64,000 nucleotides of DNA from Candidatus Rickettsia vulgarisii. GTDB taxonomy: Bacteria; Pseudomonadota; Alphaproteobacteria; Rickettsiales; Rickettsiaceae. The notes beneath the pieces are model-generated. The model was not told the origin of the DNA. It did no database searches and saw only the letters and a program-made list of their open reading frames with translations. How positions within the stretch are numbered: position 1 is the first letter of the stretch; the number at the start of each line of letters is the position of its first letter. The stretch covers positions 1,501,168 through 1,565,167 of the forward strand of contig CP133317.1 in NCBI GenBank assembly GCA_050920655.1. Direction: 5' to 3'. The translations under genes were made by a program, and so were the position numbers. Positions 3,260 to 63,299 of the stretch are shown here, in pieces.

Positions 3260-3482
3260 AATATTCTCTTTTTATAATTAACATTTTAAAGCATTTATTA
3301 CTATATGAACTAGAATTTAAAATATCTATATTTTAATTATATAATATTAAATTTTGTGTTTCAATTTTATTAATATCTTTCAACTATTTAATATTTATTG
3401 TACAATAAAATTGTATAGATAGGTTATAAAGGACCTTAATATATAATTTATACTTAGAGAAATATTTTTTAGGAGTAAGTAT

Positions 3483-8177: not shown

Positions 8178-8346
8178 TAGACTTCTTCTACTCAATTTAA
8201 AGTATAAAATAAAATATAGTAGAGGATGAGTTTGTTAATAGTTATTTTTAGCACTTCTAATGTAGGTGATGCTTGTTACTTTTTTAGTATTTATGTTACA
8301 TGAAAATTACACCCATTTGTAATACATACAACAAAGTGAAATAGGG

Positions 8347-8374
8347 TATCATTCCAGCTTAAGCTGGAATGATA
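8347..8374. repeat. Perfect 28-bp palindrome (RPE-core-like hairpin)
   Basis: TATCATTCCAGCTT|AAGCTGGAATGATA. It resembles the CATTCC...GGAATG core of the RPE arms. Confidence 0.6.
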
Positions 8375-8412
8375 TATAATTTCTATAATTTCTATGCAAC
8401 AACGTCTAGAAT

Positions 8413-18375: not shown

Positions 18376-18521
18376 ATGTCATTCCCGCGTAGGCGGGAAT
18401 CCAGAATTGATGTTATTGTTATCCCGAAAAAACTTGTTTCGGGATTCGTAATAGATGCTGAAACAAGTTCAGCATGACGTTATGGTCGTTTCCTAGATTC
18501 TTGTATACATGGGAATGACAT
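18376..18521. repeat. RPE-like composite element (146 bp) in the iscS-iscU spacer
   Basis: Left arm is ATGTCATTCCCGCGTAGGCGGGAATCCAG. The inner module is ATCCCGAAAAAACTTGTTTCGGGAT...GCTGAAACAAGTTCAGCATGACG. The right end is GGGAATGACAT. Confidence 0.8.
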
Positions 18522-21752: not shown

Positions 21753-24191
21753 ATGATGACTTTATTTAATAAGAAATTGGCCCATAAATTATTGGCTTCA
21801 ACTTTATTATCAAGCTTGTTAAATATTCCTAGCTCATTTGCGGCTAAGGAGGTTGTCCTAACAGGAAACAGCAGTAGTCCAGTAGGAGTTTCTTTTAATA
21901 ACGGTGATACTATTAAATTTTACTAATCCAAATAGTCAATTCTTGGATATTACTAACGGAACTGTAATAGGAGCTGTAAATAATAATGGACAGAGTAACA
22001 CCAAGATTGATCTTAGCGGGACTCACGTTACTGTAGGTTCAATAGGTAATGGTGACTCATTGCAAATAAACATGCCTAATTCTGCTACTCTTACTTTTAT
22101 CTGGTCAAGCAGGTGTAAATGCTCCTGGAGAAAATGATTATAGCGCTTTAAATTATTATTCTAGGTGAAGGTTGTGGGGTAGATATTAACGCGCCGATTG
22201 ATTTTTCTGCACATCTTTCACAGGCTCTTTAAACTCTAGCGGTTTAGTTATCAGTAGTAATAATGTTAAATATTTAAAAGTAAATGGTTCATCAGTTAGC
22301 GAATTTGGGCAAAGAACTATTTTTTCAAATAGTTCTTTAACAGTTGGAACAGATAATATTAATTTTGGTAATGTGATTACATTAGAAGGGGAAAATGCCA
22401 CTTTAAATGTGACTGGTAATAATCAAACAATTATAGCTTCTAATATAGGATTTGACAATAATAATGAAATTATAAATGTAACAGGTAGTTTAACCATTAG
22501 AGGTCCATTTGGGCAACCTACTCCTATACCTAATATCAATGTTAATAATGGAGGTTTTCTTAGATTGCCACCTGAATTAAACATTCACTCAACAATGACA
22601 ATTAATAATGGCACTCTGATTATAGATGCCCCAATTATGTCTTTAGCACCTATCGAAAATTTAATCTTAAAGAACGCTACTATAGATCTTGGCTTAAATC
22701 AATTAAACTACAATGGTAATGCCACTACATCAGGTACAATGCAATTAGGGATACTTATGACGCAAGAACGGAACAATCAGGGAAAATTGCGGTACTTGGA
22801 GGAGGTCTAGATTTATCAACACTTGATTCATTGGTAATTAATATTGATCCTGAATCTGGCTTATATGATCTACCTAATCAAAAATATTTCTATACAATAA
22901 TTGACGCTGATGGTGGTATAGTTACCCCTGTTGATAAATCAAAAATAATATTAACAGGCGCCTCGGATGCTAACCGTTACGCTGAGTATTCTGTAGGTAA
23001 TGATTTAGTGTTGCATGTTGAAGATCGCTCTCAAGAAATATTAATAACTGATTTGGTTGATTGGACTATTGATCCTAAAATCAGCTTATTACTCAGGAGA
23101 CTACTTTTGTTCAGTTGCTTCAATTATTAAATAATGGTCAACTAAGTGACGCAATTATATTATTAAATGATCTTGGTTTATCAAATATAGAAAGAGCAAG
23201 AGAAACATTAGATAGAATCATTACAGCGGTTCCGCCAAGAGTTAATGATTATCATCAGCAAACAAGGACGACATTTCATTTAACTAATAGTGAGATTAGT
23301 AAAAGAATGACTCCTGTTTCTGCTGGTTGTGATGATTATAGTAAGTCGTATGGATTATGGGTAAGTCCAATATATAGTAGGGGTATTAAGAGAACTGAAG
23401 GTGGAGTAAGCGGTTATAGATCCAAAGCTCAAGGTATGGTGTTTTGGATAGATACCCTGATTAACGATACTTATCTGGTAGGTCTATATTATGGACAGAT
23501 TTATGATAAATTAACTTATAGGAATCTTAAATATGGAGATAATACCAAAGGTCTAACCAATATCTTCTCTCTATATGGAGCATATAATGAGCCAAGTAGT
23601 CCATGGTTTACCGAAGGGGTATTATCTTATGCTAATACTAGAATAAAGGATCGTTCTGGTCGTAGAATATATAATGGTAATATAGAAACAGCTTTAGGAA
23701 AATATAAATCAAGAGCATATAGCGGTCAGGTAATAGAAGGCTATAATTTTAACTTAGCAAATGGTTTGATGTTAAGCCCAGTAGCAGGTTTAAGATATTC
23801 ATATTTTAGAGATGCTAGCTATCAAGAGACAGGTACTAGATTCCAAAATTTATTGATGAAGGGTAAATCATACGGTAAATTTGAAGGGATATTAGGATTT
23901 AGAACTAGCGGTGGCGTTGAATTTATCAAGCTAGCCTTAATGCCAGAGCTACATGATTATTTGGATTACAATTTTACTAACAAAAGATCTCCAACAATAG
24001 CGGCGACAATACAAGGGATTAGTGCGCCATTGGCAACCAAACAATATAAAACATCAAGAGCGTTATATACAATAGGTGGTAGTTTAACAACCAAATATAG
24101 GAAGGTAGAGTTAGGCGTGGGATTTGACGCTTTCTTAGCTAAGAAATACTATGCTTATCAAGGCAGTTTAAAAGTTAGGGCGAATTTTTAG
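21753..24191 (+). pseudogene. Sca-type autotransporter: signal peptide and passenger broken by several frameshifts or stops, 358-aa beta-barrel ORF intact
   Basis: MMTLFNKKLAHKLLASTLLSSLLNIPSSFAAKE is the signal peptide, followed by a stop at about 21925. Passenger pieces lie at 21904-22137, 22373-22810 and 22831-23130. The barrel ORF 23115-24191 has YGLWVSPIYSRG...GYRSKAQG and ends ...SLKVRANF. Confidence 0.75.
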
Positions 24192-24199
24192 CTTCTCCC
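22691..24199 (+). repeat. 1509-bp segment identical to 39727-41235 (copy 1)
   Basis: The offset is 17036 throughout. The ORF translations are identical (99 aa and 358 aa), and every line I compared by eye matched. Identity starts at GGCTTAAATCAATT and ends 8 nt after the stop codon. Confidence 0.9.
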
Positions 24200-24224: not shown

Positions 24225-24369
24225 ATGTCATCCCCGCGTAAGCGGGGATCCAGCACTACTAGTCATCCTCCGTCAGCTTGTCTAGGATCTATTAGATGCT
24301 GAATCAAGTTCAGCATGACGTTATTGGCATTTCTGGATGGCCACGTCGCTAACGCTCCTTGCCATGACA
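24225..24369. repeat. RPE-like composite element (145 bp)
   Basis: ATGTCATCCCCGCGTAAGCGGGGATCCAG ... GCTGAATCAAGTTCAGCATGACG ... CTGGATGGCCACGTCGCTAACGCTCCTTGCCATGACA. It lies between the convergent sca and leuS genes. Confidence 0.8.
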
Positions 24370-24434
24370 GAATTCTATTGTTATTATAATATTATTATTT
24401 ATTCAAGATCTTATACGTTATTCTTTAAGTTATA

Positions 24435-27162: not shown

Positions 27163-27678
27163 CTATTTCTCTTTAGAACTAATATGTAATTCTCTAGCTT
27201 TTCTTAAGATGGTATCTTCAATAATAATAGCTAGATTATTTGAATTATAATTATCTATCCAAGTATTATTTTTTAGTGTTTGTTCAAATACTCTTACTTG
27301 AATTGCATCAGGGCTGATAACATTATCTTTAATGATAATATTAACTTTAAATCTAAAATTTGGTTTATCTTTTGGGCTATACCATTCAGTTACAATAACA
27401 CCACCATTTGAATCAGCTGAAGCGAGAGGAATAGAGCTTAAGCTATTTATAGAAGCCTGCCATAAATATTTATTGATATGACTAAGTCCTGTTTTAGTGG
27501 ATTTGTTTTTTACTTTGCCTGGTCTAAATACTATTCCTTCTCCACCAAGAATAGAACCCATATCTTCCATTTCTTTTTCATGGATTGTTTGAGGGTAATC
27601 ACTAGCTACAGCCGTAGCGCCGCTATAAAATAGTAATGGAGTGATTATTCTGATTGCATATTTTAAGTATTTTTTCAT
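27163..27678 (-). CDS. DUF3576-type periplasmic/lipoprotein
   Basis: 171 aa with a signal peptide. NKYLWQASINSLSSIPLASADSNGGVIVTEWYSP...FRFKVNIII matches my recollection of the alphaproteobacterial DUF3576 core. Confidence 0.6.
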   Translation of the reverse strand: MKKYLKYAIRIITPLLFYSGATAVASDYPQTIHEKEMEDMGSILGGEGIVFRPGKVKNKSTKTGLSHINKYLWQASINSLSSIPLASADSNGGVIVTEWYSPKDKPNFRFKVNIIIKDNVISPDAIQVRVFEQTLKNNTWIDNYNSNNLAIIIEDTILRKARELHISSKEK

Positions 27679-27777
27679 AGATTTTTTTATTAATTAGTTT
27701 ATGTTGATGGTGTCATTTTCCATATTGCTGCATGGATCAAAAAAGAACGATAATATTTCATTTGGGAGGCAAAATTG

Positions 27778-28145
27778 ATGTCATTCCCGCGAAGGCGGGA
27801 ATCCAGAGTATATAATATTTTCATATAAGTCTAGCCAATTTGGATTTCACTTTTCTATTAAACGCAATTTCCAAGATCTATTCCATTTTTTAATAGATTT
27901 CTCCCTATATATATCCTCTTTAACATTATAAAATTCCTCTGTATATATGAGTAGTAGAACACTATATTTTTTTGTAAACCGCGCCATTAGCTTTTCTTTA
28001 TGTTAATAAATACGACGTTCTAAATTATTAGTAATACCTACATAAAGAGTACCATTCCTTTCAGATGCTAATATATAAACCCAATAAGAATTCATATCAA
28101 TAATATTTTACATTTTCTGGATTCCCGCCTACGCGGGAATGACAT
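27778..28145 (-). mobile_element. 368-bp element: RPE-type 29-nt terminal inverted repeats enclosing a GIY-YIG nuclease gene
   Basis: ATGTCATTCCCGCGAAGGCGGGAATCCAG (27778-27806) pairs with CTGGATTCCCGCCTACGCGGGAATGACAT (28117-28145), 28 of 29 complementary. The same 29-mer starts the 114-bp element at 58078. Confidence 0.6.
27847..28095 (-). pseudogene. GIY-YIG nuclease family (UPF0213/YhbQ-like) gene with a single in-frame TAA
   Basis: It translates to MNSYWVYILASERNGTLYVGITNNLERRIY(stop)HKEKLMARFTKKYSVLLLIYTEEFYNVKEDIYREKSIKKWNRSWKLRLIEK. The TAA at 28003-28005 sits where this family usually has Glu (YEHK). Confidence 0.8.
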
Positions 28146-28192
28146 AGGAATATAGGATGGCATAAGAATATAGAAATGACACAGATTTTATA

Positions 28193-28831
28193 CTACAACG
28201 CAACAGTAAATTCTGCTTCAGTTTTTGCTTTAATTTCTTCTATACCTACATCATCAGCTTTTTTAATTAGTACCATAGAGTCTCTAGTAATATCAAATAT
28301 TCCAAGATCAGTAATTACTCTGTTAACTACATTAACGCCTGTTAGAGGTAAAGTGCATTTTTTCAATAATTTGCTACTACTATCCTTAGCAACATGTTCC
28401 ATTAGTACGACTATTCTTTTAACGTTTGCTACCAAATCCATAGCTCCGCCCATGCCTTTTACCATTTTTCCGGGTATAGTCCAGTTAGCTAGATCACCAT
28501 TACTTGCTACTTGCATAGCTCCAAGAATAGTTAAATCTATATGAGATCCTCTAATCATAGCGAAAGATACCGCACTATCAAAGTAACTGCTTTCAGGAAT
28601 AGAAGTTATAGTTTCCTTCCCAGCGTTAATTAAATCTGGATCTTCTTCTCCTTCGAAAGGAAATGGTCCCATACCTAACATGCCATTTTCACTTTGCAGG
28701 ATAATATTCATATCAGGTGTAATATAATTTGCTACTAAAGTAGGTATACCAATACCAAGATTAACGTATAAACCTTCTTTCAGTTCTAATTGTGCCGCTA
28801 TTTGACACATTTGCTCTTTAGTCCATCCCAT
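28193..28831 (-). CDS. scoB: Succinyl-CoA:3-ketoacid CoA-transferase subunit B
   Basis: 212 aa with the active-site region LQSENGMLGMGP. Confidence 0.9.
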   Translation of the reverse strand: MGWTKEQMCQIAAQLELKEGLYVNLGIGIPTLVANYITPDMNIILQSENGMLGMGPFPFEGEEDPDLINAGKETITSIPESSYFDSAVSFAMIRGSHIDLTILGAMQVASNGDLANWTIPGKMVKGMGGAMDLVANVKRIVVLMEHVAKDSSSKLLKKCTLPLTGVNVVNRVITDLGIFDITRDSMVLIKKADDVGIEEIKAKTEAEFTVAL

Positions 28832-39076: not shown

Positions 39077-41227
39077 GTAATTAATTATAATACTACTATA
39101 CAAGCCTTAGTTGCTAATAACAATATTAGCAATATAACGATTGGACAAAATAGAACACTTTCTATTGGTTCAATAATAGGTTCTAGCGAGATAACAACTA
39201 TTAGTATTGCTGTTTCCAGTTCTTATAGTAGTATTCTTAATCTTACTGGTAATCTAGGTGAAAATGACGTTGCGCCTTCTAATGACTATAGTTCATTAAA
39301 AAATATAGTTATTTATAATAGTGTTTCTACACAGAGTAATCTAAAAGGTAGTTACTTAAATATTAATGCTCCAATTACTCTTGATGCAATTATAACTGCT
39401 AATAGTTATTGTCGTAGTAACTTGAACATAAATGACAATATTACACTTAAACTTAATAATACAATTATTATTAATAATATGAATATGAATGTAAATATTA
39501 AAGAAGGTCATTCTCTAACTTTAACTAAGGATCAAGGGTTAATTAGTAAGACAGGAGGAGAATTCATTTTTAACCTATCAGATAACAGCGCATTAAATGT
39601 TAATGGCAATAATATAACTTTTAATGGTCCTATTAATTTTAATGAGCTGGAGCTACTTTAAATATCAATGGAACTGGAACCACTATCAATAGCGATCAAA
39701 CTTTTAACAATTCCACAATCAACTTAGGCTTAAATCAATTAAACTACAATGGTAATGCCACTACATCAGGTACAATGCAATTAGGGATACTTATGACGCA
39801 AGAACGGAACAATCAGGGAAAATTGCGGTACTTGGAGGAGGTCTAGATTTATCAACACTTGATTCATTGGTAATTAATATTGATCCTGAATCTGGCTTAT
39901 ATGATCTACCTAATCAAAAATATTTCTATACAATAATTGACGCTGATGGTGGTATAGTTACCCCTGTTGATAAATCAAAAATAATATTAACAGGCGCCTC
40001 GGATGCTAACCGTTACGCTGAGTATTCTGTAGGTAATGATTTAGTGTTGCATGTTGAAGATCGCTCTCAAGAAATATTAATAACTGATTTGGTTGATTGG
40101 ACTATTGATCCTAAAATCAGCTTATTACTCAGGAGACTACTTTTGTTCAGTTGCTTCAATTATTAAATAATGGTCAACTAAGTGACGCAATTATATTATT
40201 AAATGATCTTGGTTTATCAAATATAGAAAGAGCAAGAGAAACATTAGATAGAATCATTACAGCGGTTCCGCCAAGAGTTAATGATTATCATCAGCAAACA
40301 AGGACGACATTTCATTTAACTAATAGTGAGATTAGTAAAAGAATGACTCCTGTTTCTGCTGGTTGTGATGATTATAGTAAGTCGTATGGATTATGGGTAA
40401 GTCCAATATATAGTAGGGGTATTAAGAGAACTGAAGGTGGAGTAAGCGGTTATAGATCCAAAGCTCAAGGTATGGTGTTTTGGATAGATACCCTGATTAA
40501 CGATACTTATCTGGTAGGTCTATATTATGGACAGATTTATGATAAATTAACTTATAGGAATCTTAAATATGGAGATAATACCAAAGGTCTAACCAATATC
40601 TTCTCTCTATATGGAGCATATAATGAGCCAAGTAGTCCATGGTTTACCGAAGGGGTATTATCTTATGCTAATACTAGAATAAAGGATCGTTCTGGTCGTA
40701 GAATATATAATGGTAATATAGAAACAGCTTTAGGAAAATATAAATCAAGAGCATATAGCGGTCAGGTAATAGAAGGCTATAATTTTAACTTAGCAAATGG
40801 TTTGATGTTAAGCCCAGTAGCAGGTTTAAGATATTCATATTTTAGAGATGCTAGCTATCAAGAGACAGGTACTAGATTCCAAAATTTATTGATGAAGGGT
40901 AAATCATACGGTAAATTTGAAGGGATATTAGGATTTAGAACTAGCGGTGGCGTTGAATTTATCAAGCTAGCCTTAATGCCAGAGCTACATGATTATTTGG
41001 ATTACAATTTTACTAACAAAAGATCTCCAACAATAGCGGCGACAATACAAGGGATTAGTGCGCCATTGGCAACCAAACAATATAAAACATCAAGAGCGTT
41101 ATATACAATAGGTGGTAGTTTAACAACCAAATATAGGAAGGTAGAGTTAGGCGTGGGATTTGACGCTTTCTTAGCTAAGAAATACTATGCTTATCAAGGC
41201 AGTTTAAAAGTTAGGGCGAATTTTTAG
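39077..41227 (+). pseudogene. Sca-type autotransporter, 5'-truncated passenger plus an intact 358-aa barrel ORF (copy 2)
   Basis: The frame is open from 39077 (no ATG or signal peptide) through N/T/I-rich passenger repeats to 39661. The rest is the identical repeat, with the same frame disruptions as copy 1. Confidence 0.7.
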
Positions 41228-41235
41228 CTTCTCCC
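39727..41235 (+). repeat. 1509-bp segment identical to 22691-24199 (copy 2)
   Basis: See copy 1. ORFs 39867-40166 and 40151-41227 translate identically to 22831-23130 and 23115-24191. Confidence 0.9.
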
Positions 41236-55084: not shown

Positions 55085-55194
55085 AAGAATTAATTAATAA
55101 ATCCTAAATTTTTTACTATACTGATTAGAATCTTTTAAGTATAAAAGATTTTGCATTGTCTAGAAATAGTTGGTATAATAGCTATACAAAATTT

Positions 55195-55334
55195 ATGTCA
55201 TTCTAGCTACGGCGGAAATCCAGTGGTGCATGCTGTGTCATCCCGAACTTGTTTCGGGATCTATTAGATGCTGAAACAAGTTCAGCATGACATAATTGAT
55301 ATTTTCTGGATCCCCGTCGTAGCTAGAATGACAT
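55195..55334. repeat. RPE-like composite element (140 bp) upstream of alaS
   Basis: ATGTCATTCTAGCTACGGCGGAAATCCAG ... GTCATCCCGAACTTGTTTCGGGATCTATTAGATGCTGAAACAAGTTCAGCATGAC ... CTGGATCCCCGTCGTAGCTAGAATGACAT. Confidence 0.8.
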
Positions 55335-55415
55335 AAATAATCGTTTTAACTATAATCTAGTTAATACTTTAAAAATTTTAATTATTAACATTAAATTACT
55401 AAAAAATGAACATCC

Positions 55416-58077: not shown

Positions 58078-58191
58078 ATGTCATTCCCGCGAAGGCGGGA
58101 ATCCAGGAGATATAAAATTATATTCTACTATAAGATTTTGTATGAGTATAGAAAGAACTGGGTTCCCGCCTTCGCGGCGCGGGAATGACAT
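58078..58191. repeat. RPE-like element (114 bp), 4 nt after the alaS stop
   Basis: The left arm ATGTCATTCCCGCGAAGGCGGGAATCCAG is followed by a 51-nt AT-rich interior. The right arm is CTGGGTTCCCGCCTTCGCGGCGCGGGAATGACAT. Confidence 0.8.
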
Positions 58192-63269: not shown

Positions 63270-63299
63270 ATGTCATTCCCGCCGTAGCTAGAATGACAT
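63270..63299. repeat. Short RPE-arm hairpin
   Basis: ATGTCATTC-CCGCCGTAGCTA-GAATGACAT: a 9-bp stem that mixes the two arm types seen elsewhere. Confidence 0.6.

Follow-up and report, generated by a model that had tools for sequence, protein, structure and literature searches.

At positions 27778-28145 of the window (the whole stretch of 64,000 nucleotides analysed here), a hairpin repeat occurs twice in inverted orientation and encloses a small GIY-YIG nuclease gene, and the question is what this arrangement represents and how it is related to the short palindromic elements that carry the same repeat elsewhere in the window. A sequence-only reading of this DNA had regarded the gene as the possible autonomous parent of a MITE-like repeat family, or as a nuclease homing into the repeat, starting from the premise that RPEs have no identified mobilising enzyme. 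That premise is outdated, as an NTS-ssnA-NTS arrangement was published in 2025.

Ssn proteins are a family of GIY-YIG nucleases of ~95 aa (Chenal et al. 2025, Nat Commun 16:2388, PMC11893778). They bind the hairpin CGTCATTCCCGCGMAVGCGGGAATCYRG, known as NTS or SRM, solely as single-stranded DNA (ssDNA) and cut just 5' of it, and their genes are typically flanked by this hairpin, with a reported association of 42-71% (PMC11893778). Moreover, Rickettsia is listed among the SRM-rich genera, and both the NTS-ssnA-NTS architecture and its insertion-sequence-like look have already been remarked on (PMC11893778). The characterised enzymes come from Neisseria and Wolbachia. The kind of feature is, thus, already known, and, since both the architecture and the enzyme activity were published in 2025, the locus contributes no more than another, decayed instance in a Rickettsia-like genome. 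In all probability, it is a pseudogenised Ssn/SRM cassette, in which a GIY-YIG gene of ~95 codons is enclosed by inverted copies of its cognate hairpin.

A decayed Ssn-family gene between inverted hairpins

The minus-strand ORF between the arms encodes a GIY-YIG domain (Pfam PF01541, E 3e-18, residues 4-77). Homology to relatives of 95-96 aa spans positions 28092 to 27814 across both in-frame stops, and tblastn with a 96-aa homologue covers the same interval (28092-27814) with 69% identity. Since the position of the homologues' stop codon now reads TAC, the original CDS occupied about 27811-28095, with its end 1-4 nt short of the left arm, the spacing also seen in intact relatives (L087), and the reading frame would now continue into the arm. 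This copy of the gene is a pseudogene with three lesions, namely two nonsense codons and the loss of the terminal stop. The ORF had previously been delimited as 27847-28095 and considered to be disabled by one TAA; the GIY-YIG assignment and the TAA stand, but the extent of the gene and of its damage do not, since the CDS is longer and the TGA taken for the natural stop is a second nonsense codon beyond which homology continues (Table 1).

The reconstructed protein has ~95 aa and a single domain, within the limit of <150 aa used for the Ssn family. Once repaired, it is 53% identical to N. gonorrhoeae SsnA over 90 aa (pairwise BLASTP, E 4e-35), and tblastn against an N. gonorrhoeae chromosome gives E 2e-24, the published threshold for an Ssn being E < 1e-10. 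The catalytic residues Y6, Y17, and E64 of SsnA are kept as Y7, Y18, and E65, in columns that are invariant in the alignment of homologues; mutation of Y6, Y17, or E64 in N. meningitidis SsnA abolishes cleavage (PMC11893778). A comparison with solved structures returned none for an Ssn and matched UPF0213 proteins only (E about 1e-5), so that the protein is far nearer to SsnA. These UPF0213/YhbQ-type proteins (PDB 1ywl, 1zg2) are likewise small, stand-alone GIY-YIG proteins of similar length, but distant ones. The locus therefore resembles the Ssn/SsnA system in its single-domain GIY-YIG protein, its preserved Y/Y/E triad, and the hairpin that flanks the gene at either end, and differs from it in that the window copy is a pseudogene. 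It is the one ssn copy within the 64-kb window.

Table 1. Positions of the cassette components and of the short RPE-like elements within the window.
Feature	Positions	Strand	Description and basis
Downstream arm (relative to the gene)	27778-27806	+	SRM/NTS-type hairpin ATGTCATTCCCGCGAAGGCGGGAATCCAG; motif match and folding
Upstream arm (relative to the gene)	28117-28145	-	SRM/NTS-type hairpin; minus strand reads ATGTCATTCCCGCGTAGGCGGGAATCCAG
Ssn-family (ssnA-like) GIY-YIG nuclease pseudogene	27811-28095	-	Originally about 95 codons; Pfam, tblastn, alignment
First in-frame stop, TAA	28003-28005	-	Codon 31; homologues carry E or Q
Second in-frame stop, TGA	27847-27849	-	Codon 83; homology runs 12 codons further (NPNWLDLYENII)
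Ancestral stop codon position	27808-27810	-	Now TAC
114-bp short element	58078-58191		SRM arms, AT-rich interior; intergenic, begins 5 nt past an ORF end
146-bp mosaic short element	18376-18521		Outer SRM arm; inner hairpin with the GTCAT...ATC frame and another stem; degenerate right arm
Mosaic short element, about 146 bp	24225-24370		Left arm an SRM variant, GTCATCCCCGCGTAAGCGGGGATC; right arm a different hairpin
148-bp mosaic short element	55191-55338		Degenerate outer arms; two inner GTCAT...ATC hairpins
Solo symmetric hairpin	63271-63299		ATGTCATTCCCGCCGTAGCTAGAATGACAT

The arms are copies of one 29-mer in inverted orientation, with 28 of 29 positions matching, as had been noticed before, and the inverted repeat of the cassette reaches 44 nt with 86% complementarity. 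The recurrence of the 29-mer as the left arm of two short elements is also confirmed, exactly at 58078-58106 and with one mismatch at 18376-18404; in total, it has four matches within the 64-kb window, against none in 100 dinucleotide shuffles. As ssDNA, each arm folds into an 8-bp hairpin (-8.9 kcal/mol, z about -3.7). The published degenerate SRM motif, HGTCWYN(0-2)YYVSBRHN(0-5)WNVSBRGN(0-2)RNCYNB, matches the arms at 27779-27806 (+) and 28117-28144 (-) and has six matches in the window (both arms and four other sites), where 0.03 would be expected. The hairpin is thus present in both the 5' and the 3' flank of the gene, within the 500 bp used to define association in the Ssn family, and the only deviations of the arms from the strict NTS are at the first base and, in a single arm, at one loop base. 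The GTCAT ends point outward on both sides in the window cassette and in most of the sampled loci described below, whereas the nearest arms in N. gonorrhoeae (L097) face the gene. A scan of 27500-28400 for promoters and terminators detected no signals, none coinciding with the arms, which are thus not classic intrinsic terminators; moreover, the window contains no Rfam match at gathering thresholds and no match in a tRNA/tmRNA scan.

By analogy with the characterised homologues, the cognate repeat of the enzyme would be the SRM, an NTS/dRS3-type hairpin YGTCATTCCCGCG-loop-CGGGAATCCAG, which the intact protein would have bound as ssDNA alone and on the GTCAT...ATC strand alone, introducing a nick a few nt 5' of the hairpin. 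Inverted arms would then give one cut per strand just outside the cassette, predicted from the Neisseria enzyme at about 27775/27776 (top strand) and 28147/28148 (bottom strand). The short RPE-like elements, which end in the same hairpins, are candidate substrates of the Ssn family. The relation resembles that between REP repeats and their single-copy RAYT gene, in that a nuclease gene of low copy number is enclosed by its own repeat while many other copies of the repeat lack a gene.

Short elements sharing the arms

ATGAC-type palindromic elements comprise RPE-4, -6, and -7 of Rickettsia and the WPEs of Wolbachia (Matsutani et al. 2013, PMC3767692). Elements of this type are palindromes of about 70-190 bp in Rickettsia that include ATGAC. 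The short elements of the window fit this description, with lengths of 114-148 bp, GTCAT...ATGAC ends, and a Rickettsia-like host. Matched by description, the two share a size of ~110-150 bp, the presence of different element types at the same site in orthologues, and the hallmark ATGAC, which corresponds to the outward end (GTCAT) of the SRM hairpin. In contrast to RPE-1 to -3, which are known as in-frame insertions, all four short elements of the window are intergenic. Several of them are mosaics, with inner hairpins GTCATCCCGAACTTGTTTCGGGATC and GTCATGCTGAACTTGTTTCAGCATC; one of the three further hairpins with the GTCAT...ATC frame in their interiors matches the published SRM motif (24226). 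The solo hairpin at 63271-63299 looks like a fusion of a left arm and a right arm.

The same ATTCCC-N8-GGGAAT core flanks variable short segments in the dRS3/NIME repeats of Neisseria, which also form mosaic intergenic elements, although in another host and with other interior segments. The dRS3 repeat also serves as an attachment site for filamentous phages.

Short and long elements had been described as loosely similar over the first ~25 nt inward of the arm; this similarity fails to reach significance in the best local alignment (z = 1.6, p = 0.08). The sequence-only reading had itself named unrelated interiors as one of the outcomes that would contradict its proposal, and, when the four short-element interiors were aligned with the interior of the cassette, z ranged from -0.6 to 1.6. 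The short elements are, thus, not deletion derivatives of the window "parent", since their interiors are unrelated to it. Short SRM-armed elements of other Rickettsiales likewise have the arms alone in common with the cassette, and the interpretation of short elements as MITEs derived from the cassette by internal deletion was rejected because neither subterminal nor interior sequence is shared.

Spread and residence of the cassette

The sampled loci represent the 80 best among 338 hits, with arms sought at up to five mismatches to one consensus, so that the sample is biased towards canonical cassettes. Within it, 52 of 82 homologous genes carry the hairpin at either end, inverted as in the window, and the hairpin-flanked cassettes have a median length of 378 bp. 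The 82 genes belong to Rickettsiales, Patescibacteria, Bacteroidota, Desulfobacterota, Proteobacteria, Cyanobacteria, and others (MAG labels as given), and their hairpin association agrees with the 42-71% reported in PMC11893778. The co-occurrence of nuclease and arms, which the sequence-only reading had asked about, thus extends through many phyla and cannot be put down to coincidence at a single locus. SRM-type hairpins are frequent in the window (six motif matches), which could favour a chance enclosure of an unrelated small gene by two independent solo repeats; this explanation is refuted by the recurrence of the same arrangement and spacing in 52 of 82 homologous genes across phyla and has a negligible probability.

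The two arms of one cassette differ by 1.79 mismatches, against 3.01 for random pairs, a value reached in none of 2000 permutations. In 68 cross-genome alignments spanning the cassette, 48 left and 40 right ends of homology fall within 1 nt of GTCAT/ATGAC, and, in Rickettsiales, there are cassettes with 84-89% identity that lie within non-homologous flanks. Furthermore, in one locus (L087), sodB and mscS are separated by 603 bp containing a cassette, while the sodB-mscS spacers of relatives measure 40 bp and 28 bp. The SodB proteins of the lineages compared share only 82-89% identity, and the insertion is imprecise, with about 117 and 121 extra nt beyond the cassette. Because homology ends at the hairpins, the contexts are unrelated, and one filled site has empty counterparts, the cassette moves as an arm-to-arm unit over evolutionary time, between genomes and between sites. 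This evidence supports the evolutionary mobility of the cassette, not a mechanism for it.

The cassette is mostly a long-term resident, with a behaviour similar to that of RAYTs. Its G+C follows that of the host (r = 0.90), replicons in PLSDB records contain one or two copies, and one Ssn protein is found in the context sodB-ssn-mscS every time, across samples. Among the sampled loci, the closest pair on one contig (L051/L059) is 92% identical, and the closest pair from the same MAG on separate contigs (L039/L072) is 81% identical. No direct repeats indicative of target-site duplication flank the window element or the 52 inspected cassettes; the base adjoining GTCAT is biased to C or T and belongs to the SRM. 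Megablast of PLSDB with two Rhizobium cassettes and their flanks returned filled sites, IS4 and repeat matches, and no empty site, and a search for carriage by phages gave distant GIY-YIG matches alone (31-34% identical).

At the window site itself, no gene is present in the orthologous intergenic region of L081, the closest available relative, which contains, about equally far from the scoB stop, a decayed short element whose arms resemble the SRM. The intergenic regions compared are too diverged to establish the orthology of the arms. In a second relative (L096), no arm is present within 137 nt of the neighbouring gene. 

Transposition, homing, or a role in the host

The cassette could be an autonomous transposon and MITE parent, with the GIY-YIG protein as transposase, the hairpins as terminal inverted repeats (TIRs), and the short RPE-like elements mobilised in trans. 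The TIR-gene-TIR layout is that of an insertion sequence, homology between cassettes ends at the arm ends, similar cassettes occupy unrelated contexts, one filled site has empty counterparts, and short elements have the same arms; the insertion-sequence-like architecture was, moreover, noted in PMC11893778. Nevertheless, we consider this reading unlikely, as short elements and cassette have unrelated interiors, none of the 52 cassettes shows a target-site duplication, no near-identical multi-copy sets were found (best pairs 92% and 81%, one or two copies per replicon), the G+C is ameliorated to that of the host, and the locus of one Ssn protein is stable from sample to sample. Since DNA hydrolysis by GIY-YIG nucleases involves no covalent intermediate, strand transfer would need other factors. 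In addition, inverted arms would give one cut per strand, whereas IS200/IS605 elements are cut at both ends of one strand.

The cassette resembles the REP/BIME-RAYT systems in that a low-copy nuclease gene lies between inverted hairpin repeats with abundant copies in the rest of the genome, recognition of the hairpin takes place in ssDNA, a conserved 5' flank similar to a tetranucleotide adjoins it, and the repeats cluster into mosaics. However, RAYTs act through the tyrosine of a Y1 HUH domain and a covalent intermediate, as in IS200/IS605, in contrast to hydrolysis by GIY-YIG enzymes. Membership in REP/RAYT was, therefore, rejected, since the enclosed gene is GIY-YIG and not Y1_Tnp, and the likeness is functional and architectural only.

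Homing or gene conversion would involve a cut at SRM hairpins exposed as ssDNA and repair through arm homology, copying the gene between pre-existing arms. Almost all of the space between the arms is taken up by the gene, the orthologous region in L081 has a decayed short element with SRM-like arms and without the gene, and orthologues are reported to bear different ATGAC-type RPE groups at one and the same site (Matsutani et al. 2013, PMC3767692). Conversely, both cuts are predicted to fall beyond the arms, where resection would remove the homology needed, the compared intergenic regions are too diverged for arm orthology, L096 lacks an arm in the 137 nt next to the neighbouring gene, and neither an intron or intein nor a recognisable disrupted target is involved; these points make homing quite improbable. 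Homing endonucleases of the I-TevI type share the catalytic domain and a selfish-looking association between gene and cleavage site, but the window protein lacks a DNA-binding domain, an intron, an intein, and a phage context, and Ssn cuts ssDNA only. The gene was not assigned to these enzymes, as it is single-domain, lies in a chromosomal intergenic context, and scores 22 bits with TIGR01453 against a cut-off of 56. The proposal of a MITE parent or a homing nuclease is partly supported: the association with the arms, the homologues that cut adjacent to them, and the unit-like spread speak for it, and the unrelated interiors of the short elements, the decay of this copy, the gene-less short element of L081, and the lack of a target-site duplication speak against it.

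A role in the host, as proposed for Neisseria, would have Ssn restricting incoming SRM-bearing ssDNA, with the hairpins being regulatory or incidental. Deletion of ssnA in N. meningitidis increases transformation with NTS-bearing DNA about 5-fold (PMC11893778), and the stable loci and ameliorated composition of the cassettes would be compatible with such a function. However, the gene is dead in the window, the arms show no promoter-like or terminator-like signals, and the transfer of an arm-to-arm unit between unrelated genomes is left unexplained. Moreover, Rickettsia-like bacteria are obligate intracellular and are not known to be naturally transformable; altogether, this role is very improbable for the locus. 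The interpretation as a decayed Ssn/SRM cassette, mobile over evolutionary time, is thus preferred.

How RPEs, the WPEs of Wolbachia, and the dRS3/NIMEs of Neisseria proliferate is a 25-year-old puzzle, on which it bears whether Ssn spreads hairpin repeats. It is conceivable, though doubtful, that Ssn cassettes are, or recently were, a distinct class of autonomous mobile elements based on a GIY-YIG single-strand nickase and also the source and mobiliser of the ATGAC-type RPE-4, -6, and -7, the Wolbachia WPEs, and the Neisseria dRS3/NIME mosaics. If so, they would constitute the GIY-YIG counterpart of the RAYT/REP and IS200/IS605 systems. A literature search found no paper linking the RPE hallmark ATGAC to the outer end of the SRM, or the Ssn architecture to RPEs, and a search for GIY-YIG together with RPE or MITE found nothing relevant. 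If the link between ATGAC and SRM holds, it would provide a concrete, testable candidate enzyme for the proliferation of these repeats. Elsewhere in the window, a duplicated ORF pair (99 and 358 aa) suspected of being an insertion sequence proved to be an autotransporter beta-domain inside a perfect repeat of 1,509 bp.

Identity of the cassette

The sequence-only reading, which described inverted 29-mer arms bracketing a GIY-YIG ORF, is confirmed on this point. Four matches to the 29-mer occur in the window, as against zero across 100 dinucleotide-preserving shuffles; at 86% complementarity the inverted repeat reaches 44 nt, each arm forms an 8-bp G+C-rich hairpin (-8.9 kcal/mol, folded as single-stranded DNA), and the minus-strand ORF between them matches Pfam PF01541 (E 3e-18). 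Relatives of the window protein are 95-96 aa long and, with one of them as tblastn query, the window aligns at 69% identity from 28092 down to 27814. The same reading took a TAA as the single disabling stop and a TGA as the natural end of the gene; the TAA is confirmed as a nonsense codon but is not the only one, as the TGA is a second, in-frame one with conserved codons beyond it. Homology through both stops, together with the TAC now found at the homologues' termination position, places the original coding sequence at ~27811-28095, its end a few bases short of the left arm. The layout is alike in L087, an intact cassette between sodB and mscS, where the gene ends at 3291 and the arm starts at 3296. 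The window copy is thus a fossil with three lesions, and no second homologue was found by tblastn in the 64 kb.

Positions in the window of the arms, lesions and short elements
Feature	Position	Remark
29-mer arm ATGTCATTCCCGCGAAGGCGGGAATCCAG	27778-27806	left arm of cassette
29-mer copy, inverted, 1 mismatch	28117-28145	right arm of cassette
29-mer copy, 1 mismatch	18376-18404	
29-mer copy, exact	58078-58106	
TAA nonsense codon	28003-28005	E or Q codon in homologues (protein alignment)
TGA nonsense codon, in frame	27847-27849	twelve well-conserved codons beyond, NPNWLDLYENII
Lost stop, now TAC	27808-27810	homologues terminate at same position (protein alignment)
Short element, intergenic, SRM-type ends	18376-18521	
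Short element, intergenic, SRM-type ends	~24225-24370	
Short element, intergenic, SRM-type ends	55191-55338	
Short element, intergenic, SRM-type ends	58078-58191	

The arm sequence led to a paper describing the Ssn system (Chenal et al. 2025, Nat Commun 16:2388, PMC11893778). SsnA, a 94-aa GIY-YIG protein, binds a hairpin solely as single-stranded DNA, on one strand only, and cleaves a few nucleotides upstream of it; cutting needs three bases 5' of the palindrome and binding needs the C just 3' of it (PMC11893778). The hairpin is the Neisseria Transformation Sequence (NTS), CGTCATTCCCGCGMAVGCGGGAATCYRG, which includes the dRS3 core ATTCCC-N8-GGGAAT and whose degenerate form is the Ssn-related motif (SRM); SRMs lie near 71% of Ssn homologues and on both sides of 42%, Rickettsia is among the genera with >300 of them, and the authors remarked on the insertion-sequence look of NTS-ssnA-NTS and drew a comparison with REP/RAYT (PMC11893778). 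In the window, both arms fit the published SRM pattern, as do four further sites, 18377, 24226, 58079 and 58158-58190 (6 matches vs 0.03 expected), and the strict NTS pattern fails in the arms at the first base alone (T, not C) and, in the right arm, also at one loop base. Compared with SsnA from an N. gonorrhoeae chromosome, the repaired protein has 53% identity across 90 residues (E 4e-35) and retains, as Y7, Y18 and E65, the residues Y6, Y17 and E64 mutated in PMC11893778; solved structures give distant matches only (UPF0213 proteins 1ywl and 1zg2, E ~1e-5).

Relatives of the repaired protein were scanned in one genome per species, with 338 confirmed matches. The best 80 of these loci share 51-72% amino-acid identity with it and belong to Rickettsiales, Patescibacteria, Margulisiibacteriota, Bacteroidota, Desulfobacterota, Alpha-, Beta- and Gammaproteobacteria, Cyanobacteria and others. 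When an arm was defined by <=5 mismatches to a 24-nt core, with the plus arm <=200 bp upstream and the minus arm <=250 bp downstream, 52 of the 82 genes in these 80 loci carried arms on both sides, plus-oriented upstream and minus-oriented downstream, and a further 16 a single arm; the median arm-to-arm length of the sampled cassettes is 378 bp, against 364 bp in the window. The proposed co-occurrence of nuclease gene and arms thus extends beyond the window with similar spacing, and recognition of the repeat by the nuclease is supported by the published biochemistry on homologues (PMC11893778). By every defining feature checked, the locus is an Ssn/SRM cassette, though a dead one. The intuition behind the sequence-only reading is sound, and the finding is real but of a known kind, a rediscovery of a published system (PMC11893778). 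The remaining value lies in the explicit link between Rickettsia palindromic elements (RPEs) and SRMs, and in the possibility that Ssn mobilises hairpin repeats.

Host context and movement of the cassette

The cassette (window G+C 31%) has leuS, a DUF3576 gene and scoB/scoA as neighbours. The DUF3576 protein shares 88% identity with its counterpart in 'Rickettsia endosymbiont of Bryobia graminum', the closest relative available, and 57-63% with Candidatus Tisiphia proteins, which marks the host as Rickettsia-like. The Bryobia endosymbiont keeps the order scoA-scoB-DUF3576-leuS, with a scoB-DUF3576 spacer of 262 bp vs 514 bp in the window. In this spacer there is no ssn gene, but a short element of the 146-bp class is present in decayed form, its degenerate SRM-like arm similarly distant from the scoB stop, a likeness by position, as the spacers are too strongly diverged for arm orthology to be read from them. 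In a second relative (81% identity), the 137 nt of sequence available ahead of DUF3576 contain no arm.

Several observations favour movement of the cassette as a unit. Arms belonging to the same cassette differ less from each other than arms taken across cassettes (1.79 vs 3.01 mismatches, reached in 0/2000 permutations). In 68 blastn alignments spanning the unit between genomes, with positions relative to GTCAT...ATGAC, similarity begins at -1 or 0 in 48 and ends at 0 or +1 in 40. Between a Gammaproteobacteria MAG and a Patescibacteria MAG, for instance, the cassettes are 89% identical along 380 nt that run precisely from one arm to the other. Rickettsiales cassettes share 84-86% identity among three endosymbionts and 89% in another pair, with no detectable similarity in their 3-kb flanks. 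One filled site can be set beside empty ones: the L087 cassette lies inside a 603-bp sodB-mscS spacer that measures 40 and 28 bp in relatives (SodB 82% and 89% identical), but the insertion is not clean, with ~117 and 121 extra nt besides the cassette. Against an active transposon, cassette G+C follows host G+C (r = 0.90; 52 cassettes in the 80 homologue loci, hosts 29% to 67% G+C), records hold one or two ssn copies, nine contigs of different samples all carry one Ssn protein in the same context, and no target-site duplication was seen at the window element or the 52 sampled cassettes. The picture is that of a unit transferred and inserted repeatedly over evolutionary time, yet mostly resident, much like RAYT genes.

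As to mechanism, strand-specific binding of a single-stranded hairpin and a nick 5' of it have been demonstrated for homologues, and Nm SsnA cleaves 3 nt ahead of the NTS's first base (PMC11893778). With inverted arms, the left would be cleavable on the top strand only and the right on the bottom strand only and, judging from Nm SsnA, the nicks are expected near 27775/27776 (top) and 28147/28148 (bottom), just outside the cassette. IS200/IS605 elements are cut at both ends of one strand, whereas one cut per strand is predicted here. GIY-YIG enzymes are hydrolytic, so any spread would need host replication or repair functions, which makes nick-induced recombination or copying more plausible than classical transposition. 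The Y1 (IS200/IS605-type) enzyme class is an alternative candidate mobiliser of hairpin repeats. A Y1 transposase fragment (PF01797) adjoins scoA in the Bryobia endosymbiont (JAJIYR010000077.1, 1-245), ~1.5 kb from the orthologous site, and has no counterpart at the corresponding position in the window.

Cassette interiors of the 52 are consistently 5-10 G+C points below flanking DNA. In L002 (2876-3340), the 19-nt aaaaagaagcacaaaatga follows both an upstream solo minus-oriented arm and the cassette's own right arm, and the L002 and L087 cassettes (L087 3296-3341) stay similar for ~22 nt past the right arm; therefore, in this subfamily the unit that moves or is repeated may extend a little beyond the arms. 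Strings related to 'aaaagaagcac' recur in the L001 and L007 flanks. Two records listed in PLSDB as 'plasmid' are in fact complete N. gonorrhoeae chromosomes (2.17 Mb); in one (NZ_CP119142.1 1880219-1883488), the ssnA frame does not begin with an in-frame ATG, perhaps because of a frameshift, and the GTCAT ends of the nearest NTSs face the gene, whereas they face outward in most other phyla. Repeat DNA just downstream of the ssn gene of a Rhizobium tumorigenes plasmid (NZ_CP117266.1; locus positions 1100-1700) has matches in ~100 Rhizobium and Sinorhizobium replicons, in up to 18 places per record, and possibly represents the RIME-type intergenic mosaic elements of rhizobia.

Short elements and other hairpins

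The cassette had been proposed as parent of the gene-less short elements, a proposal that fails because the interiors of these elements and of the cassette do not align significantly (z -0.6 to 1.6). Short SRM-armed elements of other Rickettsiales likewise have the arms alone in common; therefore, the short elements are not deletion derivatives of the cassette. If they depend on Ssn, they would do so through their hairpins alone, in which case they would resemble REP/RAYT, where repeats depend on the enzyme in that way.

Three of the four short elements are mosaics, with inner hairpins that keep the GTCAT...ATC frame of the SRM but have other stems (GTCATCCCGAACTTGTTTCGGGATC, GTCATGCTGAACTTGTTTCAGCATC); strict hairpins of this type number 9 in the window vs 0.4 expected and fold well as single-stranded DNA. 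The interiors of the 146-148-bp elements (18405-18493, 24256-24331, 55224-55305) contain the stems CCCGAA/TTCGGG and GCTGAA/TTCAGC. These elements thus consist of three or four hairpins in series, each resembling a nuclease site, and recall BIMEs and NIMEs. The SRM has ATGAC as its outer end, which is the hallmark of RPE-4, RPE-6, RPE-7 and the Wolbachia WPEs, and orthologues can hold different RPE groups at one and the same site (Matsutani et al. 2013, PMC3767692); no paper stating the link between the RPE ATGAC and the SRM end was found in the literature.

In the right arm of the 114-bp element (58158-58190), 5 nt are inserted in the stem-loop (CCCGCCTTCGCGGCGCGGGAA), yet the arm still fits the degenerate SRM motif. 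Solo symmetric palindromes occur at 63271-63299 (ATGTCATTCCCGCCGTAGCTAGAATGACAT) and 8345-8375 (GGTATCATTCCAGCTTAAGCTGGAATGATAT), the former looking like a left-right arm fusion, as palindromic-core recombination of two arms would leave. A 1,509-bp direct repeat (100%; 22691-24199 and 39727-41235) codes for the C-terminal autotransporter beta-domain (PF03797) of two ORF pairs (99 + 358 aa). Within ~30 nt after each copy lies an SRM-type hairpin sequence (the 24225 element and a degenerate ...ATTCCGCGGGGATGGCAT, respectively), an arrangement that points to recent duplication or gene conversion beside the repeats.
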